Below, piece after piece: positions 20,772-64,000 of a DNA stretch of 64,000 nt. The stretch covers positions 117,940-181,939 of the forward strand of contig JAOAEL010000001.1 of the NCBI GenBank assembly GCA_026416845.1, read 5' to 3'. Within the stretch, counting starts at the first letter, position 1, and each line of letters opens with the position of its first letter. The position numbers were made by a program, and so were the translations under genes. The stretch is from Patescibacteria group bacterium. Lineage in GTDB: Bacteria; Patescibacteriota; Microgenomatia; UBA8517. The notes beneath the pieces are model-generated. The model saw nothing but the letters and a program-made list of their open reading frames with translations. It was not told where the DNA came from and did no database searches.

Positions 20772-23119
20772 TTTTCTTTGCGATAATTGCTATAAATTGT
20801 AAAAAAAGATAAAAACAAAAAAGTGGCAAGACTAATCCAGAGAGAATAATAAAATGTTTTTGGCTTATAAAACATCTCTATTTTATTTGTGCCAGCATTC
20901 ACATAAAAAGACTGAAAAATTAGATTTGCTTTAAATATTTTAGCCGGCAAACCGTTAACATATAATTTCCAACTGTCATCATAGCTAACCGAGTGAAAAA
21001 CATACGAATCTATTGAAGTTTCAATTTCAAAAGATATTTTGTTCTTACCAAGCAAATAATTTGTAACTTTATATTCAGGCTCTTCATTTGATGAAACTAC
21101 CAACTTTTCCTCTAAAAATATATATTTACCTTTTGTTGTTAGCATTTTTTGTATTAATTCTTTTTGATCACTTACAAAAAACACCTGATTAGACAACCAA
21201 ACTCTAGGCAAATAGAAAAGGTATTCATACACAGATATTCTCCCTTCATCAAAAACTTTTTTATAATTTTCAATGTTATTGCCGTTGTACAAATAACCAT
21301 TAACATCAATTCCACCCAGTCTATTTTTGGGATAATCAATAATATACTTCAGATTTGAATATGCCAAAAGCGGGGAAGAAAAATTATGCACCAATCCATA
21401 ACGTCCACTCAACGCAGATAAGTCCCCCTTGTTTACAACAGAATACCATTTGCTATTAATTTCTGGATAAATTGAATCATAACCTTCTACCGACTGAATA
21501 CGAAAAGGCATGAAGAGATTTAAAGGAATTCCTCCCGCAATTCTAAATTGCTCTTTTTCTGAGTGTTGTTTTAAAAAAGAAATTATCCTAGTTTCAGGAA
21601 AAACAAACTCTCTTTGAGAAAAAGGCGTATTTTTGTTTGCATACCAAACCATTTCAAATGTTAACAAAAATAAAAGTATATATCTTGCGTAATTCAATTT
21701 ATTAAATCTCTTGGCTGTATAAATTACAAAAACCATAAAAATCAGTACCAACGTAGCAGGAATCATATTTTTTAGAGAAACCTGCATTTTATTTTGATCA
21801 TTAGGGAAGAGATTAATACCATAGACTGAAATATATGGAGTAAAATAAATGAAAATTCCAATCCCTGCAGTAATCAACAACAAAACCAAACAAATTTTTA
21901 ATATTAAATTCGAACTGCCTTTTACTTCATCAAATCTCAATGCCGATAAAGTAGCAGCAAAAAAACCAACAACAAATAGTATTCTGCTTGCGGAGCTTGT
22001 GCCTAATCCCGGGATATTCAAAATGTACGGCAGATATGCCAAGGGTGTGGGGAAAAGCATTATTAAAGAAAACAAAATACCAATTTTAAAATATTTTTCA
22101 GATCTTGTTTTGCTTCTTTTAATAAAACCAAAAATTAAAAACACAAGAGCTGTAACACCAAAAAAAGCCATATATTCATGAAAACCAAATTTGCCCCAAT
22201 AATTTCCGGTGACAACGTTTCCATAAAAATCCGGCCATATAAAGTTTGTGATTTTGTGCCAATGCATAATTCCATAAAAATACTCAACAATATAAGGGTC
22301 GTCGCGACGTATTGAACTTAAATACAATTCCAAAGTTGGCAAAAGTTGTGGCAAAGATAAAAATACACCGAAAATTTGTCCAAGTATCGCCTTGATGAGA
22401 ATCTTGATCTTCTCATGAAACAAATAAAAAGCGTAAGTAAAATAAATGACAGTTATGTATAACGGCACTTGAAAATCACCAGCAGTGTAAACAAAGAAAA
22501 AACCTATTGAGATTAAAAATATGTACAAGAAGTTTTGTCTATTTGAATATTTATGCAAGCACCAAAGCAAAAAAGGCAACCATAAACCAGCGTGGCCACC
22601 AGTTGCAAATTCCAACCAAGCAATCATATAACCACTGTAAGAAAAAGCAATTGCCCCAAATAAAGATGCCAACTGTGATAAATTTAATTTCTTTAAAAAC
22701 AAATATGTAAAAACACCCGACAATAAAACTTGTGAATATACAAGCAAGCTCCAAGCATCAATATCATTTAAAAAAAGGTAAAAAACATTAAGAGGATAAA
22801 GCACAGCCGAATGTAGTGTTGCCAAAAATGGACTTCCAGAAAACATATAATGATTCCATAAAGGGACAGATCCGTTTCTCCAAAATTCTCCCACAAGTTG
22901 CCTCCAAGGATAGAATTGAGAAAAAGCATCGGTTTTCTCCAAATTTTTTATTGGGATACCAGTTGGATAATCATCCCAAGATATTTCCGTCCAAGGGATA
23001 TGCGCCCCAACCAAAGCATCGACAGGCAATGGAACTTTACCATTCAAAAAGTAAGGGTGAAAAAATATTGCTGAGATTAAAAATATATAAAAAAAACAAA
23101 GCCAATTTGAAAACTTCAT
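20768..23119 (-). CDS. Large polytopic membrane protein, YfhO-like (GT-C type glycosyltransferase candidate)
   Basis: 783 aa. N-terminal FFHPYFLNGKVPLPVDALVGAHIPW and overall TM-rich organisation with a C-terminal soluble domain resemble the YfhO family. Family call is tentative. Confidence 0.5.
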   Translation of the reverse strand: MKFSNWLCFFYIFLISAIFFHPYFLNGKVPLPVDALVGAHIPWTEISWDDYPTGIPIKNLEKTDAFSQFYPWRQLVGEFWRNGSVPLWNHYMFSGSPFLATLHSAVLYPLNVFYLFLNDIDAWSLLVYSQVLLSGVFTYLFLKKLNLSQLASLFGAIAFSYSGYMIAWLEFATGGHAGLWLPFLLWCLHKYSNRQNFLYIFLISIGFFFVYTAGDFQVPLYITVIYFTYAFYLFHEKIKILIKAILGQIFGVFLSLPQLLPTLELYLSSIRRDDPYIVEYFYGIMHWHKITNFIWPDFYGNVVTGNYWGKFGFHEYMAFFGVTALVFLIFGFIKRSKTRSEKYFKIGILFSLIMLFPTPLAYLPYILNIPGLGTSSASRILFVVGFFAATLSALRFDEVKGSSNLILKICLVLLLITAGIGIFIYFTPYISVYGINLFPNDQNKMQVSLKNMIPATLVLIFMVFVIYTAKRFNKLNYARYILLFLLTFEMVWYANKNTPFSQREFVFPETRIISFLKQHSEKEQFRIAGGIPLNLFMPFRIQSVEGYDSIYPEINSKWYSVVNKGDLSALSGRYGLVHNFSSPLLAYSNLKYIIDYPKNRLGGIDVNGYLYNGNNIENYKKVFDEGRISVYEYLFYLPRVWLSNQVFFVSDQKELIQKMLTTKGKYIFLEEKLVVSSNEEPEYKVTNYLLGKNKISFEIETSIDSYVFHSVSYDDSWKLYVNGLPAKIFKANLIFQSFYVNAGTNKIEMFYKPKTFYYSLWISLATFLFLSFFTIYSNYRKEK

Positions 23120-42716: not shown

Positions 42717-43787
42717 ATGTTTTCACTTATAGGATGGTTAAACAAAAATAAAAAAAAGTTTTTTTTGACTTTTCTTGGTCTAGCTCTAATTGCATGGTGG
42801 ATTTGGTCGTCGCAGGGTAAGCCTACCGAAGTAGATATAGCTACCGCTTACGAAGGAGAAATCATTCAATACGTATCAGCGTCAGGCAAAATTGCCGCAA
42901 GTCAAGCCGTTAATTTAACTTTTCAAACTTCAGGCAAATTGGCATATGTTGGCGTATCAGAAGGAGACAAAATAAAAAAGGGAAAACTTGTAGCCGCGCT
43001 TGACAAAAAGCGACTAGAACAAACGCTAAGAAAATATTTAAATGCTTTTGAGAAAGAATTTAGCAATTTTGAAGACTCAAACGATTCAATCAAGGATTTG
43101 GTACTCACAGACTCAGTCAGACGTATCAAAAACAGAGCGCAAATTGATCTAAATCAAGCAGTTTTAGATGTTGAAATCCAGAATGAAACTATCCGCTTAG
43201 CTAATTTATATTCGCCAATTGACGGCATAGTAATAACAGCAAATCCTAAACATGCAGGCATGAATGTAAATCCAGGAAACGCAAGTTTTGAGATAGTAAA
43301 CCCTCAAACAGTATATTTTGAAGCAAAAGTGAACGAAACAGATATATCTCAAATACAAGAAGGTTTGCCGGTTGAATTAAAACTTGACGCGTATCCTGAT
43401 GAAATTTTATACCAGAAGGTAAATTCAATTTCTTTTTCAAGCACAACGACCTCAACTGGAGCAACAGCGTATATTGTAAACGTTTCTCTCCCACCAAATG
43501 AAAATCTGAAATACAGACTTGGAATGAATGGCGATATAAAAATCATAATAGCCCAAAAAAAAGATGTTATTTTAGCGCCTCAAACCGCGCTCGTGGAAAC
43601 AGAAAACAAAAAATATATTTGGATAATCGAAAACGGCTTATCAAAAAAAGTTGAAGTTGAGACAGGAATTTTCTCAACAAATGAAATAGAGATAATAAAA
43701 GGATTAAGAAAAGGAGATCAAATTATAAATAGGCCGCCATCTGATCTTAAGGAAAATGCAAAGGTAATACAAAAACGCAAAAAATAA
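42717..43787 (+). CDS. Periplasmic adaptor / membrane-fusion protein (HlyD/MacA-like)
   Basis: N-terminal TM anchor, then a biotinyl/lipoyl-like hairpin (GKIAASQAVNLTFQTSGKLAYVGVSEGDKIKKGKLVAAL), a coiled-coil region and beta-barrel domains. Sits upstream of the ABC pair. Confidence 0.7.
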   Translation: MFSLIGWLNKNKKKFFLTFLGLALIAWWIWSSQGKPTEVDIATAYEGEIIQYVSASGKIAASQAVNLTFQTSGKLAYVGVSEGDKIKKGKLVAALDKKRLEQTLRKYLNAFEKEFSNFEDSNDSIKDLVLTDSVRRIKNRAQIDLNQAVLDVEIQNETIRLANLYSPIDGIVITANPKHAGMNVNPGNASFEIVNPQTVYFEAKVNETDISQIQEGLPVELKLDAYPDEILYQKVNSISFSSTTTSTGATAYIVNVSLPPNENLKYRLGMNGDIKIIIAQKKDVILAPQTALVETENKKYIWIIENGLSKKVEVETGIFSTNEIEIIKGLRKGDQIINRPPSDLKENAKVIQKRKK

Positions 43788-43813
43788 TTTAAGTTAATGT
43801 CCCAAAACTTTTC

Positions 43814-44497
43814 ATGGATAAAGTTGTAGTTCTTCAATCAATTAAAAAAATATATCCAATTGGAGATGCGCAAATAGAAGTTCTTAAGAATGTTTCACTT
43901 GCCATATACGAAGGTGAATTTGTGGCAATTGTAGGGCCTTCAGGAAGCGGCAAATCCACACTAATGCACATTATCGGACTTTTAGATAAACCAACAAGCG
44001 GAGAGGTAATACTTGTCAACCGCAATGTTTCATCATTTACTGAAACAGAACTTGCGGAACTTAGAAACAAATATATTGGCTTTGTATTTCAATTTTTTAA
44101 TTTACTGCCACGCACAAGCGCGATAGACAACGTAATTTTACCTCTAACTTATTCAAAAGTACCTCAAAAAGAATGGCAAGAAAAAGCAAAAGCGATGCTT
44201 GATGTAGTTGGGCTGTCGCAAAGAATATACCATACTCCATCTCAATTGTCAGGCGGACAACAACAAAGAGTGGCAATAGCAAGAGCTTTAATAAATAATC
44301 CTAAAATAATACTAGCAGACGAACCAACAGGAAATTTAGACAGTAAATCTGGCCAAGAAATAATAAATATTTTCAAAAAACTAAACAAAGAAGGTAACAC
44401 AATAGTTTTAGTCACTCATGAACCTGATATTGCCAAACAAGCTAAAAGAATAATCGAAGTGAAAGACGGCGAAATTATAAGAGACACAAAAGTATGA
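43814..44497 (+). CDS. ABC transporter ATP-binding protein (MacB/LolD-type)
   Basis: Walker A GPSGSGKST, signature LSGGQQQRVAIARAL, Walker B ILADEPTGNLD. 227 aa, ends with a TGA stop. Confidence 0.9.
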   Translation: MDKVVVLQSIKKIYPIGDAQIEVLKNVSLAIYEGEFVAIVGPSGSGKSTLMHIIGLLDKPTSGEVILVNRNVSSFTETELAELRNKYIGFVFQFFNLLPRTSAIDNVILPLTYSKVPQKEWQEKAKAMLDVVGLSQRIYHTPSQLSGGQQQRVAIARALINNPKIILADEPTGNLDSKSGQEIINIFKKLNKEGNTIVLVTHEPDIAKQAKRIIEVKDGEIIRDTKV

Positions 44498-45690
44498 AAG
44501 AGGTTGTTGTTTTGTCTTTCAAAAACATTCTGCGGAACAAAGTGCGATCTGCTCTTACTATGCTTGGAATAATAATAGGAGTATCTGCCGTCATACTTCT
44601 AATATCCGTAGGACAAGGATTGCAAAAATACATAACAAGTCAATTTGAAAGACTAGGTGCAAACACAATTAATGTTTTACCCGGCAAAGTCACCTTGGAT
44701 GAAGGGTTCGCAGGTAGCGGACCAAACTTTGCAGGCAGTAAGTTAACATTAGAAATGGCTAACGATCTCCAAAAAATAGGCGATCCAATAAGCATAGTAG
44801 GAGCGGAAAATGAAGTCTCGGCAACAGTTTCATACAAAGGCAAATCAAAATACACAACAGTCGCCGGCATAACTGTGGGTTACGCAAAAATACTTAATCT
44901 GGAAATAGAAGAAGGAAGAGAAATATCTCAAACCGATATTGACTTAGGCAGAAAAGTGGTAGTCATAGGCAAATCAATACAAGAAGACCTTTTTGGACAA
45001 AGTACAGCCATAGGCAAACAAATAACAATAGCCCAAGAACGTTATGAAGTTATAGGAATACTTGCCGAGATAGGTTCGGCGGGGATAGGAATTGACATTG
45101 ATAATTTCGTCGCAATCCCAATCACAACCGCAAGTAGAATCTCAGGGTCTGACAAAATTCAGGTTATTTCAATAAAAGCTAAATCCAAAGATGACATGGA
45201 TGAAACAATAGAAATCACCAAAAGGTATTTAAGCACTAAACTAAAAGAAGACGAATTTAGCATTATTGATCAATCAAATCTTTTAAGCACTATTACACAA
45301 ATACTTAATGTTCTCACACTAGCACTTGGAGGAATTGCCGCGATCTCTCTTGTGGTAGGCGGTGTTGGGATCATGAATATAATGCTAGTCTCAGTAACGG
45401 AAAGAACAAGAGAAATAGGACTTAGGAAAGCAGTGGGAGCCAAACCAAATGATATACTAATTCAGTTTTTAATAGAAGCGACAACATTATCAGTTGCCGG
45501 TGGAACAATAGGCATACTAATTGGTTGGGGAGGATCAATTGTACTAAATCAGTTTTTCCCTACATCTGTTACAATTTGGGCTGTGACTTTGGCTTTTGGA
45601 GTATCAGCGGCAGTTGGTATAATCTTTGGCGTCGCCCCTGCCATCAGAGCATCGCGATTAAATCCTATAACCGCCTTACGATATGAATAA
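44494..45690 (+). CDS. ABC transporter permease, FtsX/MacB-type
   Basis: N-terminal TM, large extracytoplasmic domain, then three C-terminal TM helices (FtsX fold). ATGA overlap with the ATPase gene. Confidence 0.85.
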   Translation: MKEVVVLSFKNILRNKVRSALTMLGIIIGVSAVILLISVGQGLQKYITSQFERLGANTINVLPGKVTLDEGFAGSGPNFAGSKLTLEMANDLQKIGDPISIVGAENEVSATVSYKGKSKYTTVAGITVGYAKILNLEIEEGREISQTDIDLGRKVVVIGKSIQEDLFGQSTAIGKQITIAQERYEVIGILAEIGSAGIGIDIDNFVAIPITTASRISGSDKIQVISIKAKSKDDMDETIEITKRYLSTKLKEDEFSIIDQSNLLSTITQILNVLTLALGGIAAISLVVGGVGIMNIMLVSVTERTREIGLRKAVGAKPNDILIQFLIEATTLSVAGGTIGILIGWGGSIVLNQFFPTSVTIWAVTLAFGVSAAVGIIFGVAPAIRASRLNPITALRYE

Positions 45691-53672: not shown

Positions 53673-54860
53673 ATGGTTTGTACCCTTAATTTACGGTTTG
53701 TTTTTCTCATGAAGCAAATATTACTGTCCATCGCCACAATAGCCGCAATAGGAAGCATATCTTTTGGCTTGTCCTCGGCTTTTTTTTCTGACACAGAAAC
53801 TTCGCAGGCAAACTCTTTGACTGCTGGATCTTTTGACCTTTTGTTAAACGGAGGCAACAACACTTCCGCGATTGTGAACATTAATGATTTAAAACCGGGA
53901 GACAATCAAATAGTAGAAAAATCTTTGCGAATAGAAGATAACTCGGGTTATGTTTTCATGCACATAAAAGATCTGTTACCTTCTCAAGGCACGCAAACAG
54001 AACCTGAGATCTTAGAAGAAAATGGCACTCCAAAATTTGACATACAAAACTACATCAAATACGATCTTGAAGCAAACAACCAAACAATCATTTCATTAGA
54101 CAACCAAGTTTTTCTGCCGGAAGTCGTCTCTTGCTGGATACCTCTTGGAGAATTGCCAGGACAAACAAATGTTTCTGTAAAACAAAGTTTTCACTTGGAT
54201 CCGAACGTCACAAATTGGGCACAAGGAGACACGCTTAGCTTTGTTGAAGAATTTTATTCTGTTCAGAGCAGAAACAACTCCAATCCAGCTCCGCCAGTTT
54301 CTTTGACTGGAAGAATTTGGGATAAAAACATCAAAAAGTGTGTAAATTGTCCATCTGGGATTCTTTTTGCCGACGGAGTAGACAGCGCAAATACCAAACA
54401 AGGCACTTTGAAAAACGGCAATCCAATAACAGATCCAAATAGAACAAATCCTTTAAACGCAACAGGACCTAATAACTGGGTAAACGGCACAGGAACAAAC
54501 TTTTTCTCACTGGGAAAAGGAGGGTATATTACTCTGACTTTTTCATCGCCGGTGGTTAACGAACTAGGCAATGATCTTACCTTCTACGAAGCCACAAATG
54601 GCAGAGCGACATATCCTGAAGAGAAAGCGGATGTTTATGTAAGTTTTGATGGAGTCAGCTACTTTTTCATTGGCACAGTAACAAGTGAACCGGGTCCCGG
54701 TGGAGACGGCATTATGGAGTTAGATATCGCGCCTTCGGGATTGCCTTCCATAAAATATGTGCGTTTAATAGACACGACAAATTTCACTCCTCACGCAAAC
54801 AACGCTGACGGCTACGACATTGACGCGGTAAAAGCAAAAAGCGCATGTCTAAAACAATGA
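53673..54860 (+). CDS. Secreted TasA/camelysin-like protein with a SipW-cognate-class signal peptide (alternative start at 53709, MKQILLS)
   Basis: N-terminus ...LLSIATIAAIGSISFGLSSAFFSDTETSQANSLTAGSFDL carries the A-FFSDTETS hallmark of SipW-dependent signal peptides. A NINDLKPGDNQIVEKSLRIEDN core motif is shared with the two paralogs. Confidence 0.7.
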   Translation: MVCTLNLRFVFLMKQILLSIATIAAIGSISFGLSSAFFSDTETSQANSLTAGSFDLLLNGGNNTSAIVNINDLKPGDNQIVEKSLRIEDNSGYVFMHIKDLLPSQGTQTEPEILEENGTPKFDIQNYIKYDLEANNQTIISLDNQVFLPEVVSCWIPLGELPGQTNVSVKQSFHLDPNVTNWAQGDTLSFVEEFYSVQSRNNSNPAPPVSLTGRIWDKNIKKCVNCPSGILFADGVDSANTKQGTLKNGNPITDPNRTNPLNATGPNNWVNGTGTNFFSLGKGGYITLTFSSPVVNELGNDLTFYEATNGRATYPEEKADVYVSFDGVSYFFIGTVTSEPGPGGDGIMELDIAPSGLPSIKYVRLIDTTNFTPHANNADGYDIDAVKAKSACLKQ

Positions 54861-55012: not shown

Positions 55013-55933
55013 ATGAAAAAGATTTTAATAAGTTTGTTAACAATTGGCGCGGTTGGAAGCCTTGCTTTCGGAGCAACATCGGCATTTTTCTCTGATACAG
55101 AAACGTCAACAAACAACAAAATAGTCGCTGGGAAACTAGATCTGAAAGTTGATAGCACTGCCCATTATGCTGGAATGGTATGTAAAAATAATGTCTGGAC
55201 AGATGAAGATAATGATCAAACAAACAATCCAAGACCTGAACTTCTAGGTAAAACTTGTTCGGGCACTTGGACATCAACCGATCTTGGTCCAACAAATCAG
55301 TTTTTCAATTTGTCAGATGTGAAACCGGGCGACACTGGAGAAAATACGCTCAGTCTTACGGTTTTGGACAATGATGCTTGGGCATGCATTGTAATGAAAA
55401 ATCTTAAAAATGATGAAAATCAATGTACAGAGCCTGAATCTGACCCGCAAAGCGGCAACGACACAACATGCGGAAACGATCCGGTTGGAGCAGGACTGGG
55501 CGAACTTGCTCAAAATCTGTACTTTACAGCATGGTTGGACCAGGGGAATCAAGCAGGTTGGCAAAATTCAGATAATGACAATACAAATGACGATCCGGGT
55601 GAAGGAGATAACAAGTGGCAAGGTCCAACACTTGAACCTTTGTTATTCTCAAACCAACAAGGTCCCGCGTCTGATGTCCTAAATGGAAAAGTATACGCTC
55701 TGGCTGATTCCACAAACGGGAATTATTTAGCTGGTAGCGTTACTAATTACATCGGGCTTCAGTGGTGCGCTGGACAAATGACTATATCTGGAAACACTAT
55801 CAGTTGTAACGGGGCGACAATGGGCAATAATACCCAAACCGATTCCTTGACAGCGGATGTTTCCATTTATGTGGAACAACGCAGAAACAATCCGGCATTT
55901 AAATGCGCCGGGGCGAATCTGCTTCCTAATTAA
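55013..55933 (+). CDS. Secreted TasA/camelysin-like protein with a SipW-cognate-class signal peptide (paralog 2)
   Basis: MKKILISLLTIGAVGSLAFGATSAFFSDTETSTNNKIVAGKLDLKVD, followed by FNLSDVKPGDTGENTLSLTVLDN. Confidence 0.7.
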   Translation: MKKILISLLTIGAVGSLAFGATSAFFSDTETSTNNKIVAGKLDLKVDSTAHYAGMVCKNNVWTDEDNDQTNNPRPELLGKTCSGTWTSTDLGPTNQFFNLSDVKPGDTGENTLSLTVLDNDAWACIVMKNLKNDENQCTEPESDPQSGNDTTCGNDPVGAGLGELAQNLYFTAWLDQGNQAGWQNSDNDNTNDDPGEGDNKWQGPTLEPLLFSNQQGPASDVLNGKVYALADSTNGNYLAGSVTNYIGLQWCAGQMTISGNTISCNGATMGNNTQTDSLTADVSIYVEQRRNNPAFKCAGANLLPN

Positions 55934-55952
55934 TGATTGTTTTTCCAAAAAC

Positions 55953-55982
55953 CCCTCGGGCGAAATTTGTTTCGCCCGAGGG
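55953..55982. terminator. 13-bp perfect GC-rich hairpin (CCCTCGGGCGAAA / TTTG / TTTCGCCCGAGGG) between TasA-like gene 2 and sipW; candidate attenuator or partial terminator
   Basis: Seen directly. The stem is exceptionally GC-rich for this genome. The + strand has no U-tract after it (AAAGGGAG...), but the minus-strand reading is followed by GUUUUUGG. Confidence 0.45.
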
Positions 55983-56062
55983 AAAGGGAGAATAGTAAAA
56001 CAAAAAAAATTGCAATATATCAAATTTAAAAAATTAGGCACAAAAGTTTATGAGATCAGAAT

Positions 56063-57292
56063 ATGAAATACTTTAGGAACTTTTTTTATGTTTTCAAAAA
56101 CGCAAGTTTAATTTTGCTCTTCACAGCGGCTTCATTAATAACTCTTTCACATTTTGGGTATTTAAAAACAATTAAACCATACATTGTTCAATCAGGCTCT
56201 ATGGAACCGTCAATACCAACAGGAAGCGTGATCTTTTCTCTCCATTCCAAACTTTATCAGCCGGGAGACATAATCACTTTTTTTGCAAACGGTGATCCTA
56301 AAACTGTTGTTACACACAGGCTCAATTTCAAAATTTTTAAAGACAATCAAACTATATACATCACCTCTGGAGACGCAAACGAAGACTTTGACAAATGGGA
56401 AGTGAGATATGAGCATATAGTTGGCAAAGTTGTGGCAATCATACCACATCTTGGGCATGTGATCGATTTTGCCAAAACACCACAAGGATTTATAGCTCTT
56501 GTGGTTGTTCCTGCAACAATCGTAATCTATGAAGAACTAAAAAACCTCCTGCGAGAAATTGGCAAGCTCGTTTTGGCAATCAAAATTTTTTTTAAAAAGA
56601 AAAAGGAAGAAAATTCAAGTCTATTTAATTTCGCAAAAAGCGTCAATCTAAATAGAATTTTTGTTTTTGTGCCAATTTTAGGAGTGTTTGTCTTTATAAC
56701 CGCAAATTCCGGAGGATACTTTTTAGATACAGAAAAAAGCGCAGGGAACGTTATAGGAGTTGCAACATCGTATAATTCGCCAACAATAACACCTACCAAC
56801 TCAAACTCACCCTCGCCAACCATCTCTCCTACAAGCACACTACCACCCACAAACACAATAACCGCCACAGCAACGCCAACAACAACTCCCACAATTTCTC
56901 CTATGGTTAAGCTAAACGAAGCCGCGCCTGCAACTAATCCCGAATGGGTAGAAATTTACAACACATACCCTACTGCCGATTTTCTTAAAAATTACTGGCT
57001 TGACGATGACACTAGTTTTACAAGCGACTCAGGAAACTCCCCAAAAGTGCTAATGTCATCGCTTGACACATCGAACACTTTATTCCCAACCATAGACCTT
57101 ACAAATCCAATTTTTAACAATACCGGAGATTTTATAGTTATTTTTGATAACTTGGGAAATCTTGTGGACTCGGTTAATTACACCAGTAATTTTGGCACTA
57201 AATCCATCGGTCGAGAAATTGACGGAACAGGAATATGGAAATTCCCTTGCGCTAATTCAACAAAAGGAGCAAGCAACAACACAAAATGTTAA
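56063..57292 (+). CDS. sipW: SipW-type (archaeal/ER-type) signal peptidase I fused through a Pro/Thr-rich linker to a C-terminal lamin-tail domain (LTD)
   Basis: TM helix, then catalytic-Ser box QSGSMEPSIPTGSVIF, His box TVVTHRL, second TM GFIALVVVPATIVIY, linker TPTNSNSPSPTISPTSTLPPTNTITATATPTTTPTISP, then LNEAAPATNPEWVEIYN...GDFIVIFDNLGNLVDSVNY, which matches the LTD consensus. Confidence 0.8.
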   Translation: MKYFRNFFYVFKNASLILLFTAASLITLSHFGYLKTIKPYIVQSGSMEPSIPTGSVIFSLHSKLYQPGDIITFFANGDPKTVVTHRLNFKIFKDNQTIYITSGDANEDFDKWEVRYEHIVGKVVAIIPHLGHVIDFAKTPQGFIALVVVPATIVIYEELKNLLREIGKLVLAIKIFFKKKKEENSSLFNFAKSVNLNRIFVFVPILGVFVFITANSGGYFLDTEKSAGNVIGVATSYNSPTITPTNSNSPSPTISPTSTLPPTNTITATATPTTTPTISPMVKLNEAAPATNPEWVEIYNTYPTADFLKNYWLDDDTSFTSDSGNSPKVLMSSLDTSNTLFPTIDLTNPIFNNTGDFIVIFDNLGNLVDSVNYTSNFGTKSIGREIDGTGIWKFPCANSTKGASNNTKC

Positions 57293-58311
57293 AAAAGATT
57301 TTTCTATTATCAATATCGACAGCGGCAATTTTAACAGTGATCTTTTGGCACAAAAACACGACAAAAAATGTCTACGCAATAGATCCTCTGATAATAACAT
57401 ACAACAATTCGCCCACACCAAATCCAGTTTTTAATGTGGCAAATTTCTTACCCGGAGACAATAAGATCGAGAAAATTAAAGTAAAAAACAATTTGCCAAG
57501 CGGAAGCTTCGGAGTCTCGGTGGATGGGATATTGGATCAAGAACAAAAAAACTTGGCAGAAATACTACAAATTACTATCACAGAAGTTGGTTTTGGGGAT
57601 ATTTATGGAGGTTCAACTGGCAAAAAAACTCTTAAACAGTTTCTGAACTCGCCACCAATTAACTTGGGAGTATTCCCATCAGGAAGTGAGAAAGAATATG
57701 AATACAAAATATTTTTCCCACATGAATCAGGCAACGAATATAAAAACGGGCATGTTGTCTTTACGCTAATTTTCAACAATTTTATAACAATTGATCTTCC
57801 AAAAGAATGCGCTCACTTGGCAAATCAAATTGTCAACGTAATTGAAGGCACTGAAGGCAATGACAACATACATTCAACCTACCTTAGCGACCTAATACTT
57901 GCCAAAGGAGGTAACGATAAAATCAGAGCTTCAAGCGGAAGCGATTGTATTGTAGCCGGAGACGGCAATGACACAATAGACGCAGGCACAGGCAATGAAG
58001 TTATTTTAGGCGGAGGAGGAAATGACAACATAAGAGGTGGTACAGGAAACGACACTATCTATGGAGGAAGCGGAAATGACAGAATCGACGCGGGAAGCGG
58101 AGACGATGTAGTCTATGGCGATGATGGAGATGACAACATAGAAGGCGGAAGCGACAAAGATAAACTATATGGCGGCAAAGGCAAAGATGACATAAGAGGC
58201 GGAAGCAACAACGACCTTTTAGACGGAGGAGAGGATTTTGACAAATTAAATGGAAATTCCGGCCAAGACACGTGCAAATTCGGCGAAGTGCTTAGTTCTT
58301 GTGAACTGTAA
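57286..58311 (+). CDS. Secreted TasA-like core protein with C-terminal RTX (hemolysin-type) calcium-binding repeats
   Basis: Signal anchor MLKKIFLLSISTAAILTVIFW; FNVANFLPGDNKIEKIKVKNN core shared with the two TasA-like paralogs; then 12 tandem GGxGxDxxx nonapeptides (GGNDKIRAS ... SNNDLLDGG). ATGTTAA overlap with the sipW stop. Confidence 0.7.
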   Translation: MLKKIFLLSISTAAILTVIFWHKNTTKNVYAIDPLIITYNNSPTPNPVFNVANFLPGDNKIEKIKVKNNLPSGSFGVSVDGILDQEQKNLAEILQITITEVGFGDIYGGSTGKKTLKQFLNSPPINLGVFPSGSEKEYEYKIFFPHESGNEYKNGHVVFTLIFNNFITIDLPKECAHLANQIVNVIEGTEGNDNIHSTYLSDLILAKGGNDKIRASSGSDCIVAGDGNDTIDAGTGNEVILGGGGNDNIRGGTGNDTIYGGSGNDRIDAGSGDDVVYGDDGDDNIEGGSDKDKLYGGKGKDDIRGGSNNDLLDGGEDFDKLNGNSGQDTCKFGEVLSSCEL

Positions 58312-58470: not shown

Positions 58471-59061
58471 ATGTTACTCAAAAAGATAACAAGCAGTTTG
58501 GCAACATCTGGCGCTTTGTTGGTGTTGGCAACTGGAGCGGTATTTGCAAGCACAGATGTTACCATCTCGGGAAACGGAGAAGATTCAGTAAACACTGTGA
58601 AAGTTAACTTAACTAACACAACATCCGTTTACCAAAGCAATGCAACAAATGTCAAAAACGATGTCTCATCAAGTGCGTCAACCGGCTCAAACACCATTTC
58701 AAAAACAACAAATGGTAATGCCAAGATAGACACTGGGGACGCGACAAGCATGGTGTCTGTTATGGTTGCCGGCGGGAATAATCACCTGTCTAGCAATCCA
58801 TGCGGATGTGTAAATGGCGAAACGACAGTGACCGTCAAAAATAACGGAGCTGACTCAACCAACAAAGTAAAAGTGAAGTCTAAAAACACTTCACAACAAG
58901 GACAGCACGGAGAAACAAATGTATCAACATCTGTTTCTTCTAAAGCCAAAACCGGTAAAAATAAGGTTAAAAAAGCCACCGGTGGCAATTCTGAAGTCAA
59001 AACAGGTGACAGCGAAAGCGCCGTGTCTGTAATAGTAACCGGAGGCCATAATTATTTGTAA
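58471..59061 (+). CDS. Secreted two-repeat protein of an unrecognised N/T/S-rich repeat family (TGDA family)
   Basis: Signal peptide MLLKKITSSLATSGALLVLATGAVFA. Two ~80-aa repeats, each ending ...TG.N.....T.GN.....TGD..S.VSV.V.GG.N.L, plus a CGC pair. Strong RBS AAAGGAGGTG before the ATG. Confidence 0.6.
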   Translation: MLLKKITSSLATSGALLVLATGAVFASTDVTISGNGEDSVNTVKVNLTNTTSVYQSNATNVKNDVSSSASTGSNTISKTTNGNAKIDTGDATSMVSVMVAGGNNHLSSNPCGCVNGETTVTVKNNGADSTNKVKVKSKNTSQQGQHGETNVSTSVSSKAKTGKNKVKKATGGNSEVKTGDSESAVSVIVTGGHNYL

Positions 59062-59129: not shown

Positions 59130-59681
59130 CTAGTCGACGGACAAAACAACAACCAATCTCTTGGAATCTTTATAGCCGCTACAAGTATACAAGGTAAGCT
59201 TTTTTTCTTCGCTCGATGGCGCAATAATTTTTGTATCCGTTGGCAAAACTTCCAAAACATCATCAACTTTATATTCAAACCAAGTTTTATTAGTTAAAAC
59301 AAAAACAGAGTCTCCTTTTTTTATATACTTTAAATTGCCAAACAAATTATCTTTTGCATGCCCAAATATGACCACATTGCCAATTTCTCCTGGATATGCG
59401 GACCCTACACCCCATCCAGCTTTATCATCAAACACCTCCCAATAACCACTTTTTACAAAAGATACTTGGACATTAACATTTAGTTTAAGATCTGGAATAA
59501 GTATTTTTTGCGGGATTTTTTCAGCGTCAATTTCATTGATTAAAGCAAATTCTTCCAGTGTTGCAACTTGATTAACAGATAAAACTGAAGCGTCCGCTTT
59601 TGGTTTAAACAAAAGCAACAAAACGCCAAGGGCAAAAAGACAAATGCCTATTGTAATTTTAGAAGGGTAATTTATTCTCAT
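59130..59681 (-). CDS. Sortase (cysteine transpeptidase), with an N-terminal membrane anchor
   Basis: Catalytic His in VIFGHAKDNLFGN, TLxTC-type Cys in KLTLYTCSG, Arg in RLVVVLS. The start is taken at the second Met (MRINYPSK); 59708 is also possible. Confidence 0.8.
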   Translation of the reverse strand: MRINYPSKITIGICLFALGVLLLLFKPKADASVLSVNQVATLEEFALINEIDAEKIPQKILIPDLKLNVNVQVSFVKSGYWEVFDDKAGWGVGSAYPGEIGNVVIFGHAKDNLFGNLKYIKKGDSVFVLTNKTWFEYKVDDVLEVLPTDTKIIAPSSEEKKLTLYTCSGYKDSKRLVVVLSVD

Positions 59682-60810
59682 TTTCACTCGCTTTTCCCGC
59701 CGAATCAATTATCATACCCAAACCCAAAACCAAAAACAAAATTCCAAACAAATAATTTAGATCCAAACTTTTTTCGCTTGAAGTTTTTGAAAGGCCCAAA
59801 ATTTCTCCGCCGCCAATGGCATTTTCGCCCAAAAAACTGGTTTTGCTTAAAAAATTTGCGTTATTGTTGTTTGCAGATCCGTCGTTTGGATTTTTAATGA
59901 TTGAATCTTCAGGAACAGTCGGAGGGTCATCAGGATCATCCCCATTATCAAAAAAACAACAATTAAAACTAATAAAATTTGAATTTATATAATCATTTCT
60001 TAAAAGAATATCTAAAAAAATATCGCCTGTAATTATTGCCGAATCTCCCAAATTGCCGCCAATGAAATTTTCACCACTATTTGCGTCAACAAAAACTTCA
60101 TTTAGAATCACTGAACTATTCTCAACAAAAACATTATTTTTTAAATTTTTGAAATTGTTTGCGCTACTCCCACCGACATAAGCGTTGTCAATAAACCTGA
60201 AACTTGAAGCATCTTCTGAAAGATTGGCAGGCAAACTAGAAATAGATGAATTAATTGGACCATTTTTTACAGATGTTACAACTTTTACATCCCCTGTTGT
60301 TATTTTTGTATTGCGAGAATTATCATTTGCTTTATTGAGACCAGTGTTTGCAACCCCAACAATTTTAGTTTTAATTACAGCGCTATTTTGAGAAACAAAA
60401 TTATTTGACAAATTGCTTGAAGAACTAACTGTATTTGTTGAATTAGAACCATTGTTATTAATGTTAACCTGCTGGTTTATCTTGGCAGTTTCACAACAAT
60501 TATCTTTAAAACCATTTTGATTTGATAAATTAATCGCGGTCTGACTAATTTTCGCGTCGCCAGTTTTTACGTTAACTTCATCTCCACTTTGATCAATTAA
60601 ATTTGATCCGGTGTTTGTATTAGAAAAGACATCGTTTTGAATAGATGAGTTGTTTGTTTGCAAAACATTTACCGAATTTGACAATTGAACAATCGCCTGA
60701 CTTGAAGAATCGGAACCGTTATCAGATATCGTCAACTCATACCCAAGCGCACACTTTGGTTGACATAAAAATATGAAAAAAAAGATTAGAAAAACAAAAA
60801 ATTTAGACAT
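59659..60810 (-). CDS. Secreted repeat protein, TGDA family (paralog)
   Basis: Signal peptide MSKFFVFLIFFFIFLCQPKCALG. Repeats ISDNGSDSS...NTNTGSNLIDQSGDEVNVKTGDAKISQ and NNGSNSTNTV...ANTGLNKANDNSRNTKITTGDVKVV. Has a CC pair and a C-terminal hydrophobic segment without LPxTG. Confidence 0.6.
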   Translation of the reverse strand: MSKFFVFLIFFFIFLCQPKCALGYELTISDNGSDSSSQAIVQLSNSVNVLQTNNSSIQNDVFSNTNTGSNLIDQSGDEVNVKTGDAKISQTAINLSNQNGFKDNCCETAKINQQVNINNNGSNSTNTVSSSSNLSNNFVSQNSAVIKTKIVGVANTGLNKANDNSRNTKITTGDVKVVTSVKNGPINSSISSLPANLSEDASSFRFIDNAYVGGSSANNFKNLKNNVFVENSSVILNEVFVDANSGENFIGGNLGDSAIITGDIFLDILLRNDYINSNFISFNCCFFDNGDDPDDPPTVPEDSIIKNPNDGSANNNNANFLSKTSFLGENAIGGGEILGLSKTSSEKSLDLNYLFGILFLVLGLGMIIDSAGKASENENKLPF

Positions 60811-60872: not shown

Positions 60873-63221
60873 TCACTTTCTCGAGAACATCGCAAGTATA
60901 GCGTTTTTGTTTTTTGCAATAAATAAACCCGTGAAAATTGGGATTAATGTCAGAAGCCATGCAAGATTTATGTTGATAGTTTTTTTCTCATTTCTGATTT
61001 CAGCACTTTCAACAAAGGCGTCTACATCACCAACAATCCCAGTTTCGCTTTGATCTTTAGAACCTGAAAATGCCAAAACTGATTTGTTGGAATTACTAGC
61101 TTTTTTCGATATCGCTTTATTTGAAAAAATCTTTTTATTTGATTCTTCCTTCATATTTGTAACTTCATTATAAACCTGAAAACCGGAAGTGTTTGGGTTT
61201 GCAAGAGTGCTACTTTTGTCTTTTTCGGCTACTCCTCCGCGTCCACTATCGTTAACTGAAGATGGCTTCGAACCAACATAATCAGGAGAGACAAAATTAC
61301 CAACCCAACTGCCAAACACATTTACAACTGTCACGAATAATCTGCCGCTACCGACTATATTGTTATTTACAAAGTTAACCAAATTGGCAACAATGTTTGC
61401 GTCTCCGGTAACAATATTTGTATTGCCACCGGTATTTTTGCTTGCCTGATTTTTGCCAGTATTAGCCGAAAGATTCAAATTATTAGTGACATTTGCAGTG
61501 TTTGATTGAACAATTGTATTGTTTGCGATTGAAGAGCTAAAAGCATTGTTAAATGAATTTGCGCCATTGCCATTATTTGAAGCATAAATTTCTCCATTTT
61601 CATCAACTAAAAACTCAATCCCATTTGATCCAGCCAAATTTGCGCCTTCAGGAGACCCCAATATTCTACCAACCCAATTTCCAGCCTGATTAATAAGAAC
61701 AAGCCACCAATCCCCGCCAACTATATTTGTGTTTGCAACATTGATAACTTGCGCAGTGACATTTGCATTCCCTGAATTAACAGTGTTATTGCCATCTGTA
61801 TTTTTACTCACTTCGTTTTCACCCGTGTTGGCGTCAAAAAACAAGTTGTTGTTTATATTGGCATTATTAAACTGATACAACTGATCGTTTGAACTGACAC
61901 TTGCATCCGCAGTGTTTGTAGAGTGTGCGCCATTGCCTGTATTTTGAACATTGCCAGACAAAAGACAACAAGGCAAACCAAATCCGAAAGGAGCAATTAT
62001 GTCTCCAACCAAATTGCCAAAAATATTTACAACACCATAAATCACATTGCCAGCTATGTTATTGTTTACAAAAGTCAAAGCGTTTGCAGAAACATTCGCA
62101 TCGCCAGTGGTAATTGTCACATCTCCGCCAGTATTTTTATCCGCATAATTTTTGCCGGTATTGGAATCAAGCTTAAGTGTGTTCAAAACCACAGCATCGT
62201 TAGTCTGAAATTTATTTGTGTTTAGCGCATAATCAAGCAAAGCGTTATTCGAAGAATTCGCGCCATTTTGATGGTTGGCAACATTACCTCCACCCAAAGT
62301 TGAACAGTTAACTATGCACGCATTGCCAAAATCCAAAACAATATCCCCAATGTGATCATCTTCAACATTAAACTCTGCAATAACCACCCCATCAACATTT
62401 GTGTTGACAGAAGTAATAATAGTGCCAGTTGTATTTGCGTTGCCTGTTTTAATGTTTACATTGCCAACATTTTTGGAAGCGGAATTTCCGCCAGTGTTAG
62501 TATCTTGAGAAACTGAATTTATAACAACAGCTTTATTGTCTTGAATTGTGTTTGAATTATTTTCAGAAACAAAAGCTCCATTGTTTGCAGAACCAGATCC
62601 ATTGCCTTCATTAACAACAGCAGAAGCACCACCTGCCAAGCCGGTAGGCACTGCCGATAAATTGCTGTTTGCAACCACAGCTCCGGTGACAGAATTTGTC
62701 GCATTGCCAGTTCTTAGATCAGTTTTACCCGAATTTCCATCTGAGTTTTGTCCCCCTGTAGAATTATCAACAGCCAAACTTTTAGGAGAAACTGAAGAAG
62801 ACTGCTGGTTCTCAGCAGGTGAACTTGAATTATCTGAAGCGGCAAAATCAGAGTTAATTGATCTATCTCTTTTTGTTTTTTCATTTGAACTTTCTGAATT
62901 TTTTGGTTTGGAATTATTACCAGATTGATCACCTTGAGAAGAACCAGAATTTTGGCTATCTGGCAAATTATTTAGACTGCCAGAGGGAATGGTAGGAGCA
63001 GTCGGGGCAACAGGAGGAATTGGAGCCGCAGGTGGAGTTGGAGACAAAGGCGGAGATGGCGCGTTGGGAGCCATAGGCGCCGACGGAGCAACCGGAGCGC
63101 TTGGCACTGATGGAATTTCAGAAGCCAAAACCCCTGCCACTTGCACAAATAAAATTACAAATATAGTAAAAAGGGCAATTATTCTTTTAGTTATACTTTT
63201 TATAAATTTTATAAATTGCAT
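60873..63221 (-). CDS. Large (782 aa) secreted surface protein: Pro-rich N-terminal tract, four or five ~110-aa TGDA-family repeats, and a C-terminal hydrophobic anchor
   Basis: Signal peptide, then PSVPSAPVAPSAPMAPNAPSPPLSPTPPAAPIPPVAPTAPTIPSG. Repeats such as LDSNTGKNYADKNTGGDVTITTGDANVSANALTFVNNNIAGNV and LSANTGKNQASKNTGGNTNIVTGDANIVANLVNFVNNNIVG. C-terminal LAWLLTLIPIFTGLFIAKNKN. Confidence 0.65.
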   Translation of the reverse strand: MQFIKFIKSITKRIIALFTIFVILFVQVAGVLASEIPSVPSAPVAPSAPMAPNAPSPPLSPTPPAAPIPPVAPTAPTIPSGSLNNLPDSQNSGSSQGDQSGNNSKPKNSESSNEKTKRDRSINSDFAASDNSSSPAENQQSSSVSPKSLAVDNSTGGQNSDGNSGKTDLRTGNATNSVTGAVVANSNLSAVPTGLAGGASAVVNEGNGSGSANNGAFVSENNSNTIQDNKAVVINSVSQDTNTGGNSASKNVGNVNIKTGNANTTGTIITSVNTNVDGVVIAEFNVEDDHIGDIVLDFGNACIVNCSTLGGGNVANHQNGANSSNNALLDYALNTNKFQTNDAVVLNTLKLDSNTGKNYADKNTGGDVTITTGDANVSANALTFVNNNIAGNVIYGVVNIFGNLVGDIIAPFGFGLPCCLLSGNVQNTGNGAHSTNTADASVSSNDQLYQFNNANINNNLFFDANTGENEVSKNTDGNNTVNSGNANVTAQVINVANTNIVGGDWWLVLINQAGNWVGRILGSPEGANLAGSNGIEFLVDENGEIYASNNGNGANSFNNAFSSSIANNTIVQSNTANVTNNLNLSANTGKNQASKNTGGNTNIVTGDANIVANLVNFVNNNIVGSGRLFVTVVNVFGSWVGNFVSPDYVGSKPSSVNDSGRGGVAEKDKSSTLANPNTSGFQVYNEVTNMKEESNKKIFSNKAISKKASNSNKSVLAFSGSKDQSETGIVGDVDAFVESAEIRNEKKTININLAWLLTLIPIFTGLFIAKNKNAILAMFSRK

Positions 63222-63353: not shown

Positions 63354-64000
63354 CTACCCCATAAGGAATTCCAAAAGATCTCTCAAATTAAACGAAATGT
63401 TTAAATTGAAACCATACATTGGAAATTCCCATTCAGGAGTTTCACCATAAACATTGGAATTACCACCGTTTGTAACTTCCACATAGCTTTCGGCATCACC
63501 GGTTTTGATATAAGGATCTGATCCATCATAACCAGTTCCTTTCTTGGATTCGTTATAACCAGTGCCTGCGTCAGCATAAACTAAATTGTCGACACCGTAA
63601 CCGCCATTTGATTGAAAAACGCCAAGAGAGTCATCAAAGACTGCTTCAATGTCGTTTCTCGAATCATAACCATTTCCATGGATTTTTGCCAAAACATCAA
63701 AAAGACATCCGCAATCAACGTCTGCCCAATTGAAGTTTGTCATTGTGTCAACAACCACATCCACAGTGGCATCTCCTGTCTCTATGACAAAGTCACCACC
63801 TGTGTTTTTGTTTGCTTTATTGGAACCAGTTCCGGCATCAACATCAACTTTGTTGTAAACAGAAGCTGAGTTGTTTTGCACAACATTTAGATCGTGACCA
63901 AAGTCTAGATCCAAATCGTTTCTGCTATCAGCGCCGTTTCCAACAACCCAAGCGCTAAGAGTTTTGGCTCCGTTTCCGTTAGCACCAACTCTTGCAGAAT
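63354..64000 (-). CDS. Partial CDS (C-terminal part; N-terminus lies beyond the window end): secreted repeat protein, TGDA family
   Basis: The frame is open to the window edge: ...NGNGAKTLSAWVVGNGADSRNDLDLDFGHD is upstream of the ORF-track TTG start. Repeats DAGTGSNKANKNTGGDFVIETGDATVDVVV and DAGTGYNESKKGTGYDGSDPYIKTGDAESYVEV, plus a CGC pair. Confidence 0.55.
   Translation of the reverse strand, partial: SARVGANGNGAKTLSAWVVGNGADSRNDLDLDFGHDLNVVQNNSASVYNKVDVDAGTGSNKANKNTGGDFVIETGDATVDVVVDTMTNFNWADVDCGCLFDVLAKIHGNGYDSRNDIEAVFDDSLGVFQSNGGYGVDNLVYADAGTGYNESKKGTGYDGSDPYIKTGDAESYVEVTNGGNSNVYGETPEWEFPMYGFNLNISFNLRDLLEFLMG

Follow-up and report, generated by a model that had tools for sequence, protein, structure and literature searches.

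A TasA-like core without a donor strand, joined to an RTX beta-roll, in a Patescibacteria group bacterium: a candidate terminating or anchoring subunit of a donor-strand-exchange fibre

Introduction

Fibres of the TasA type are now viewed as ancient matrix or pilus filaments of both bacteria and archaea, built by donor-strand exchange. To our knowledge, how these fibres start, stop and are tied to the cell is largely unknown, even in Bacillus. There, the donor-only protein TapA is called the anchor, and the polarity of the fibre relative to the cell is unsettled.

In TasA, the donor strand consists of residues 28–38 at the mature N-terminus (PMC9674648), and for TapA a nucleating role through strand donation is proposed (PMC9674648, PMC10151520). 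In the haloarchaeal Tat-fimbriae (Tafi), filaments of the donor-strand type assembled without a chaperone, TafF is predicted to take the donor strand of TafA and so to act as terminator and anchor (PMC11821415). Similarly, LPXTG anchors are predicted to join AbpX fibrils via donor-strand complementation (bioRxiv 10.64898/2026.01.04.697558).

Here we describe a protein encoded in a 64,000-nucleotide stretch of the genome of a Patescibacteria group bacterium (the window). The original prediction, made from the DNA letters, had placed a TasA-like core and RTX repeats in a single reading frame at 57286–58311, and this observation holds.

Results

The target protein is identical to the NCBI MAG protein NZM26_04850 (P0179) of a Patescibacteria group bacterium (Table 1). 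The SipW-LTD reading frame lies directly upstream, and its stop codon and the ATG of the target overlap by 7 nt; the target gene is co-transcribed or translationally coupled with this SipW-type signal peptidase gene. Counts from a promoter and terminator scan equalled the shuffled expectation. Two TasA-like subunit genes also lie upstream of the target in the window. The first, whose true start is probably Met13 (nt 53709), encodes a SipW-type signal, the FFSDTETS donor strand, a TasA core and an extra C-terminal domain for which Pfam gave no match. The second encodes the same type of signal and donor strand, followed by a TasA core with a large insertion. In the peptidase fusion we recognise a third transmembrane (TM) helix, an internal FFSD-like motif (aa ~210–231), a Pro/Thr linker and a lamin-tail domain (aa 282–374). 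The internal motif scores weakly as a donor strand in the window (E 0.02) and at 1.5e-6 to 2e-3 in seven orthologous fusions.

Table 1. Coordinates of the target gene, its parts and the neighbouring fibre genes in the window.
Feature	Position	Strand	Evidence or remarks
TasA-like subunit 1	53673..54860	+	PF12389 E 2e-8; donor HMM E 1.8e-15
TasA-like subunit 2	55013..55933	+	TIGR04088 E 6.5e-8; PF12389 E 7.8e-5; donor HMM E 8.4e-22
SipW-type signal peptidase fusion	56063..57292	+	TIGR02228 E 3.1e-23; SipW model E 1e-23; LTD E 2.3e-8
Target ORF, 341 aa	57286..58311	+	Signal peptide, donor-strand-less TasA-like core, RTX beta-roll, Cys tail
Predicted signal peptide, aa 1–31 (MLKK, hydrophobic helix, ...VYA/IDP)	57286..57378	+	AlphaFold helix 2–22
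TasA-like jelly-roll core, aa 32–170, without FFSDTETS donor strand	57379..57795	+	
Linker, short helix 173–178 and conserved 'LPxEC' (Cys175)	57796..57846	+	AlphaFold helix
Predicted RTX beta-roll, 16 in-register nonapeptide units, aa 188–331	57847..58278	+	PF00353, CyaA matches, strand period
C-terminal tail D-T-C-x-x-G-E-x4-C-E-L and stop codon	58279..58311	+	Conserved in RTX-type relatives

The order TasA-like gene(s), sipW, family member recurs in 10 of the 10 Patescibacteria loci examined (the window, L003/4, L005/6, L007, two clusters in L008, L010, L011, L012 and L014), and this gene order makes it likely that the protein plays a minor or accessory part in the fibre. A locus search with the single target protein yielded the source MAG, one locus from Clostridia and nothing else.

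An AxA-type site directly before the first core strand is predicted in the target and conserved in the family. Across a 40-sequence alignment, position −1 is Ala in 33 and position −3 is A, V, I, T, S or L in 39. From this pattern we infer signal-peptide cleavage between VYA and IDP. If the N-terminal helix were left uncleaved, the topology would be that of an N-terminal membrane anchor.

The connection between the target core and TasA is visible only by fold or profile–profile comparison. Taken alone, the target has no match to PF12389 even at E<=10 and none to TIGR04088; its N-terminal domain alone gave no usable match in Pfam or NCBIfam and nothing in a word-indexed homologue search. Relatives of the core were gathered by exhaustive HMMER search. 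As originally described, the target carries the motif shared with both TasA-like paralogs (here F-N-V-x-N-F-L-PGD ... V-K-N), which fits them given a 2-residue gap, and pairwise BLASTP of the core against the two is weak (E 0.013 and 0.23). At the profile level the similarity lies far above chance: hhalign aligned the family with its TasA-like neighbours, represented by PF12389-positive proteins, over 140 columns (E 5.7e-14, probability 98.2%). Run over all 352 stop-to-stop ORFs in the window, the family HMM ranked the two TasA-like paralogs (E 5e-4 and 0.014) highest once the target itself was set aside. PF12389 is matched directly by 26 of 140 family members on their own, at best with E 1.8e-5. 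Against PDB sequences the family profile HMM gave chance-level matches only (streptococcal pilin FctB, E 0.06).

Structural comparison found the anticipated jelly roll of TasA type in the core, with TasA and archaeal pilins as top matches; TapA (6HQC) was absent among the top 50–60. A single-sequence AlphaFold model of the whole target left the core unmodelled (pLDDT <50 over most of aa 1–170). Taken as a whole, the profile and fold comparisons support homology of the target core to the two SipW-cognate TasA-like proteins, and a TasA jelly-roll fold.

What the target lacks is a segment of ~14 residues, FFSDTETSxxNxL, that aligns with the TasA donor strand. The original prediction was correct that FFSDTETS is absent but described it as a leader; the segment is the counterpart of TasA residues 28–38, the donor strand at the N-terminus of the mature protein. 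A signal-plus-donor HMM does not match the target, whereas it matches the paralogs at 8e-22 and 2e-15, and the donor motif was found in 0 of 140 family members scored versus 7 of 7 TasA-like neighbours tested. The hhalign alignment of the family to the syntenic TasA-like proteins opens just past FFSDTETS. The rest of the core is kept despite the loss, including the GNEYQ...F-D-L end strand. The N-terminal strand IDPLIITY, equivalent to TasA 41–47, might act as a short donor. A candidate donor-strand peptide for the target core is FFSDTETSTNNKIV.

In the C-terminal half of the target, PF00353 (HemolysinCabind) reaches 100.9 bits, where the cut-off is 23 (E 3.3e-29), bearing out the clean run of RTX repeats first noticed. 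The earlier count of 12 nonapeptides was an undercount, because 16 consecutive units can be read in register, of which ~13–14 fit (G/A)GxGxDxUx well. Among PDB sequences, the RTX blocks of CyaA are matched at 2e-28. The single-sequence AlphaFold model shows 17 short strands at 9-residue spacing (aa 184–330), with pLDDT 80–90 over aa 200–300, and on this basis the C-terminus is predicted to form a true RTX parallel beta-roll. The expected Cys-containing tail is present and reads ...DTCKFGEVLSSCEL. Cysteines 175, 221, 330 and 339 are each kept in 66–68 of 69 RTX-bearing relatives (Cys175 in 68), and 65 of 69 RTX-type relatives have the D.C...C tail at the extreme C-terminus; in the target, two disulfides are predicted. 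Neither Pfam nor NCBIfam detected a catalytic domain in the target.

We found no type I secretion (T1SS) features in the target and no T1SS genes adjacent to it here or in 10 related loci. An HlyD/MacB pair is encoded at 42717–45690, 12 kb upstream of the target, and is not conserved at the other loci. Export by a T1SS was rejected on the basis of the N-terminal Sec-type signal peptide and the lack of conservation of HlyD/MacB at related loci.

The core is common to ~395 cluster representatives (50% identity); current database labels in this family include 'calcium-binding protein', 'RTX toxin-like' and 'hypothetical'. RTX repeats occur in 73 of 140 family members scanned; other C-terminal modules in this set are LTD (19) and Pur_ac_phosph_N/fn3 (22 and 8). 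A hydrophobic segment followed by a K/R tail ends 21 of 150 representatives; P0043, a membrane-anchored member, was traced to a 1.7-kb contig only. The C-terminus of L008_213 consists of LPSTG, a TM segment and RR, and Clostridial relatives, which adjoin a TasA-like gene and sipW, end in PPxTG, a TM segment and RRR. The C-terminus of the target has no TM segment and no LPXTG; the RTX roll and Cys tail stand there instead. We rejected a one-off gene fusion or assembly chimera, given that this architecture is repeated across hundreds of clusters and on many independent contigs. The first suggestion of a chimeric and unusual protein, taken as a one-off, is not supported.

Discussion

We propose, with a probability of roughly 0.55, that the target serves a TasA-like fibre, built by donor-strand exchange, as a minor and acceptor-only subunit that would terminate or anchor it. 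With a fibre-subunit fold, an RTX tail and no linking strand, the target most likely acts at the end of the fibre or as its anchor, and not in starting or building it. Following export and cleavage of the signal peptide, the mature core would accept the donor strand left free at the N-terminus of the last TasA-like subunit. The fibre would end at the target because it has no strand to pass on, and the target is expected to be a non-polymerising minor subunit. FimH-type subunits without an N-terminal extension follow the same end-of-fibre logic. By its position, the Ca2+-folded RTX roll, closed by the Cys tail, may link the end of the fibre, in a calcium-dependent manner, to the cell envelope or a target surface; in relatives, the module on this core is a membrane anchor, a sortase signal, or LTD or fn3-like domains. 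We use the term anchor by analogy with these relatives, because the target itself is without an anchor in membrane or wall, and its RTX roll could equally serve as a distal adhesin.

Alternatively, the target may be an acceptor-only adhesin at the far tip of the fibre, with the RTX roll as a Ca2+-dependent adhesive or rigid spacer, as in FimH and RTX adhesins. The architecture equals that of a FimH-type pilin domain joined to an effector domain, the swappable modules of the family are typical of adhesins, and the lack of a cell anchor in the target would fit. Counter to this, the relatives with a readable C-terminal fate (TM segment, LPSTG or PPxTG) are cell-anchored, and the Tafi model puts the acceptor-only subunit proximal to the cell. 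For a tip position, the fibre would also have to grow outward from the cell at its donor end and be capped last. We regard this placement as unlikely, at perhaps one chance in five.

Somewhat less probable still is a role as a freely secreted protein of the calcium-binding or matrix kind, or as a camelysin-like enzyme, reusing the TasA-type beta-sandwich outside any fibre. Such a role would agree with the database names, with the commonly soluble nature of RTX exoproteins and with a core that itself falls below the PF12389 threshold. It is at odds with the strict place beside sipW and TasA-like genes at every locus examined, with the translational coupling, and with the loss of only the donor strand from an otherwise conserved core; moreover, no catalytic domain was found and no T1SS is linked to the gene.

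That the target starts the fibre or chaperones the first TasA-like subunit, loosely like TapA as first suggested, is improbable: it does occupy the accessory-gene slot of a tasA/sipW operon, as tapA does, but the N-terminal TasA-like strand that TapA is proposed to donate (PMC9674648, PMC10151520) is absent from the target and all 140 relatives scored, the fold is that of TasA and not of TapA, and a closer analogue at the locus is the donor-like motif and LTD fused to SipW. Of the two roles put forward at the outset, nucleator or anchor, the second fits better, given the C-terminal membrane anchors and sortase signals of relatives.

Returning to the target as an acceptor-only subunit, its matching, donor-only initiator is probably to be found in the SipW-LTD fusion, as the C-terminal module. 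More tentatively, Patescibacteria may possess a complete chaperone-free donor-strand-exchange pilus cassette. In this scheme, which we consider possible but doubtful, SipW would carry, as a fusion, a cleavable initiator of its own (TM, FFSD-type donor strand, Pro/Thr linker, LTD), the shaft would be made of one or two TasA-like proteins and the acceptor-only family would terminate the fibre. The swappable C-terminal module (RTX, membrane anchor, LPXTG, LTD, fn3) would decide attachment, and the RTX version would be calcium-switched.

The family amounts to a natural experiment in which a TasA core has lost the donor strand alone, beside its peptidase and with varied end modules. If the acceptor-only reading is true, it would provide a rule, open to testing, for how fibres are oriented and terminated, and a function for hundreds of Patescibacteria proteins labelled 'calcium-binding' or 'hypothetical'. 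It would also offer a handle on the attachment of these tiny episymbionts to hosts or surfaces, and a defined capping reagent for TasA-like polymerisation.

Comparison with known systems

With TasA and camelysin (PF12389; B. subtilis TasA, 5OF1/5OF2/8AUR) the target shares the PGD and GN-x-YQ-...-F-x-F landmarks, a Sec signal peptide and an operon with a SipW-type peptidase. Unlike TasA, it is without the N-terminal donor strand, falls below the PF12389 and TIGR04088 thresholds, and adds a 150-aa RTX beta-roll.

Closest in predicted role are TafF (PMC11821415) and the LPXTG and SLH anchors of AbpX loci, likewise predicted minor pilin-like acceptors whose genes lie beside that of a dedicated signal peptidase. 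The likeness to TafF is one of predicted role. TafF, an archaeal protein, carries C-terminal transmembrane helices, whereas the target comes from a CPR bacterium and has an RTX roll but not its own anchor. Like TapA of B. subtilis and AbpB of Pyrobaculum, the target belongs to a TasA-type operon as an accessory protein that is either processed by SipW or encoded alongside it. TapA, however, has a different beta-sandwich fold and is a strand donor, whereas the target would have the opposite polarity as an acceptor only; TapA-like logic would sit in the C-terminal module of SipW-LTD.

The GGxGxDxUx repeats, the predicted parallel beta-roll and the structured C-terminal cap are shared with RTX proteins (PF00353; CyaA RTX blocks, serralysins, RTX adhesins). 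In contrast to these, the target uses an N-terminal Sec signal in a host expected to have no outer membrane, has no T1SS linkage, and is capped by a conserved Cys-x8-Cys-E-L tail, with four conserved cysteines. Chaperone–usher pili belong to an unrelated fold family and machinery, and the target locus has no chaperone or usher. Nevertheless, as with the FimH and PapG tip subunits and the PapH terminator, the place of the target in the fibre would be set by one half of the donor/acceptor pair, with an effector fused to an acceptor-only pilin domain.

The target gene and its operon

The window comes from a Patescibacteria (CPR) MAG. The gene for the 341-residue target protein (NCBI NZM26_04850, annotated there as 'hypothetical protein') closes a same-strand block, its ATG lying within a 7-nt overlap with the TAA of the upstream signal peptidase gene. 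Its N-terminal domain is 100% identical to a 5.9-kb contig of isolate SKYG105. The order TasA-like gene(s), sipW, family member recurs at all related Patescibacteria loci with enough flank: L003/L004 (Candidatus Levybacteria), L005/L006, L007, L008 (two clusters), L010, L011, L012 and L014, where LTD replaces RTX on the family member.

Coordinates of features in the window
Feature	Position	Strand	Remarks
Paralogous membrane proteins	about 2000-41400	mostly -	about 25, 500-600 aa
YfhO-like protein	20768-23119
HlyD-type membrane-fusion protein and MacB/FtsX-type ABC permease	42717-45690
Sugar-nucleotide genes	46-52 kb
TasA-like 1	53673-54860	+	PF12389 Peptidase_M73/TasA, E 2e-8
TasA-like 1, extra C-terminal domain	54318-54860		aa ~215-395
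TasA-like 2	55013-55933	+	TIGR04088 SipW-cognate signal, E 6.5e-8; PF12389, E 7.8e-5
Hairpin	55952-55983
Archaeal/SipW-type signal peptidase I with lamin-tail domain (LTD)	56063-57292	+	peptidase E about 1e-23
Internal motif of SipW fusion	about 56690-56755
LTD of SipW fusion	56906-57184
Target ORF	57286-58311	+
Repeat-built secreted protein	58471-59061	+
Sortase	59130-59708	-	beside repeat-built proteins
Repeat-built secreted protein	59659-60810	-
Repeat-built secreted protein	60873-63221	-
Repeat-built secreted protein	63354-63914	-

The listed start of TasA-like 1 (MVCTLNLRFVFLM...) places 12 extra residues ahead of a typical signal peptide (MKQILLSIATIAAIG...), and translation probably begins at the ATG at 53709. 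Pfam gives no match to the additional C-terminal domain of TasA-like 1 (...FFSLGKGGYITLTF...GYDIDAV...), which is seen again at the end of L014_454, a protein of locus L014, and in L008_b directly after a donor-strand motif. The 130-nt gap between TasA-like 2 and sipW holds a GC-rich hairpin (14-bp stem, 9 GC pairs) with no U-tract on the + strand, which might attenuate read-through and so favour shaft subunits over the downstream minor components.

A TasA core apparently without its donor strand

By pairwise BLASTP the target N-terminal domain resembles the two paralogs weakly (E 0.013 and 0.23), and the domain alone has no Pfam match. Exhaustive HMMER searching recovered the same domain in 395 cluster representatives (79 at E<=1e-10). 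Among the 140 representatives scanned, 73 carry RTX repeats and 26 match PF12389; Pur_ac_phosph_N is present in 22, LTD in 19 and fn3 in 8. Comparison by hhalign of the 40-sequence family profile (A3) with seven TasA-like proteins (the two paralogs together with five drawn from four related loci) gave a probability of 98.2% (E 5.7e-14) over 140 columns, from the A-G-x-L-D-L strand via PGD to the terminal GN-x-YQ...F-D-L strand. When the family HMM, built without the target, was run on the window's 352 ORFs, the two paralogs came out as the top non-self matches. The AlphaFold model built with the family alignment (pLDDT 90.2) matched the TasA fibre 8AUR first in a Foldseek search of the PDB (E 4.1e-5), followed by the TasA monomers 5OF2/5OF1 (TM 0.52-0.53) and the archaeal donor-strand pilins 9H8B, 7UEG and 7PNB. 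The kinship with the paralogs proposed in the original prediction, which an absence of similarity after proper alignment would have undone, is therefore borne out, and the core is genuinely homologous to TasA.

Both paralogs carry FFSDTETS at the TasA donor-strand position, immediately past the SipW cleavage site. From the TIGR04088 motif and the TasA sequence, with numbering that agrees with the published residues, we take AFNDIKSK of TasA to be the aligned segment. In TasA, residues 28-38 at the mature N-terminus are the strand donated to complete the next subunit, and residues 48-61 self-complement the monomer (PMC9674648). The target family alignment begins right past the FFSDTETS segment, and the first core strand is immediately preceded by a conserved (A/V/I)-x-A site in which 33 of 40 sequences have Ala at -1. 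The donor-like motif occurs in none of the 140 family members scored, compared with all seven TasA-like neighbours tested, and a signal-plus-donor HMM trained on sequences of other loci finds the window paralogs (8e-22 and 2e-15) with no match to the target. Thus, at the level of sequence, the family appears to be a TasA core from which the donor strand has been specifically deleted.

The RTX roll and the ends of relatives

The C-terminal half of the target matches PF00353 (100.9 bits, E 3.3e-29), confirming the predicted RTX repeats, of which there are 16 (G/A)GxGxDxUx nonapeptides in register (residues 188-331) rather than the 12 originally counted. Among sequences of known structure, CyaA RTX blocks and the beta-rolls of serralysins or lipases come nearest, and AlphaFold places short strands at nine-residue intervals (pLDDT 80-90). 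Four cysteines are kept in 66-68 of 69 RTX-bearing relatives: Cys175 (LPxEC linker), Cys221 (GxDC repeat), and Cys330 and Cys339 (terminal DTCxxGExxxxCEL). This conservation suggests two disulfides, one closing a C-terminal cap.

Elsewhere in the family, a hydrophobic segment and K/R tail form the C-terminus of 21 of 150 representatives, the L008 protein L008_213 ends in LPSTG, TM and RR, and distant clostridial relatives end in a sortase-type PPxTG, TM and RRR, with a TasA-like gene and SipW adjoining. Judging from these termini, the donor-less core appears to have been tied repeatedly to the cell envelope. A long spacer, acidic or rich in Ser/Thr, follows the N-terminal helix of the clostridial proteins (P0232-P0246; L009, a Clostridia MAG); at L009 (6001-8126) the donor-less-core gene comes before a gene for a small TasA-like protein and one for a SipW-like peptidase.

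A donor-like module on SipW

Beyond the peptidase domain, CPR SipW proteins have a basic stretch, a third hydrophobic helix, the motif (Y/F)F(S/L)D..(S/T)S..N.F.AA, a Pro/Thr linker and usually LTD. The window's internal motif (GG followed by YFLDTEKSAGNVIG) resembles the cleavage-site and donor-strand motif of the substrates (A followed by FFSDTETS). A donor HMM matches the internal site in all eight SipW fusions (E 1.5e-6 to 0.02), with the weakest match in that of the window, and none of the stand-alone SipWs, and TIGR04088 scores above cut-off on the L005 module (23.5 bits). At L008 the module is a separate gene following a short SipW. The SipW-LTD type of fusion was found at eight related loci. 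The module looks like a substrate-like, donor-only (TapA-like) unit, and may be a self-processed initiator.

Other genes in the window

The repeat-built secreted proteins (N-x-(A/S)-x-V-x-N...TG-(G/S)-N...TGDA) have no Pfam or NCBIfam match, and neighbouring genes homologous to theirs come after the TasA cassette at L005, L008 and L011. In the 59659-60810 product, as in L011_203 from locus L011, GGEILGLS lies just ahead of the C-terminal TM; L008_213 contains GEVLGISTLPSTG. The paralogous membrane proteins have weak PMT/PMT_2 (GT-C glycosyltransferase) matches. Rhamnose-pathway genes also adjoin the cassette in L007, L010 and L012. The target carries a Sec signal, and the HlyD/MacB pair is both distant and unconserved at related loci; for these reasons the pair was rejected as an RTX exporter.

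Proposed assembly and comparison with known systems

We propose that the fibre proteins would be exported and then cleaved, that the SipW-borne donor-only module would initiate the fibre, and that the shaft would grow through donor-strand exchange between the two TasA-like proteins. Uptake of the last free donor strand by the acceptor-only target would end the fibre. The predicted RTX roll, expected to fold only in extracellular Ca2+, sits where relatives have an anchor and could attach the fibre end to envelope or surface. Since the target itself is without an anchor, it may instead be a distal adhesin. Of the nucleator and anchor roles first suggested, an anchor is plausible; a TapA-like nucleator is not supported, as the polarity proposed for the target is opposite to that of TapA (PMC9674648; PMC10151520).

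Previous mention of TasA homologues in Patescibacteria is limited to a Pfam distribution (PMC9245690). In the literature searched we came across nothing on SipW-LTD fusions or CPR camelysin-like proteins, and no account of RTX repeats joined to a TasA core that lacks the donor strand. That terminal subunits can be defined by missing one half of the donor/acceptor pair is already known. The proposed cassette mirrors the roles predicted for archaeal Tafi (PMC11821415), where TafC would be the tip or initiator and TafF would terminate and anchor the filament, and the proposed role of the target also mirrors that predicted for LPXTG anchors in AbpX loci (bioRxiv 10.64898/2026.01.04.697558).
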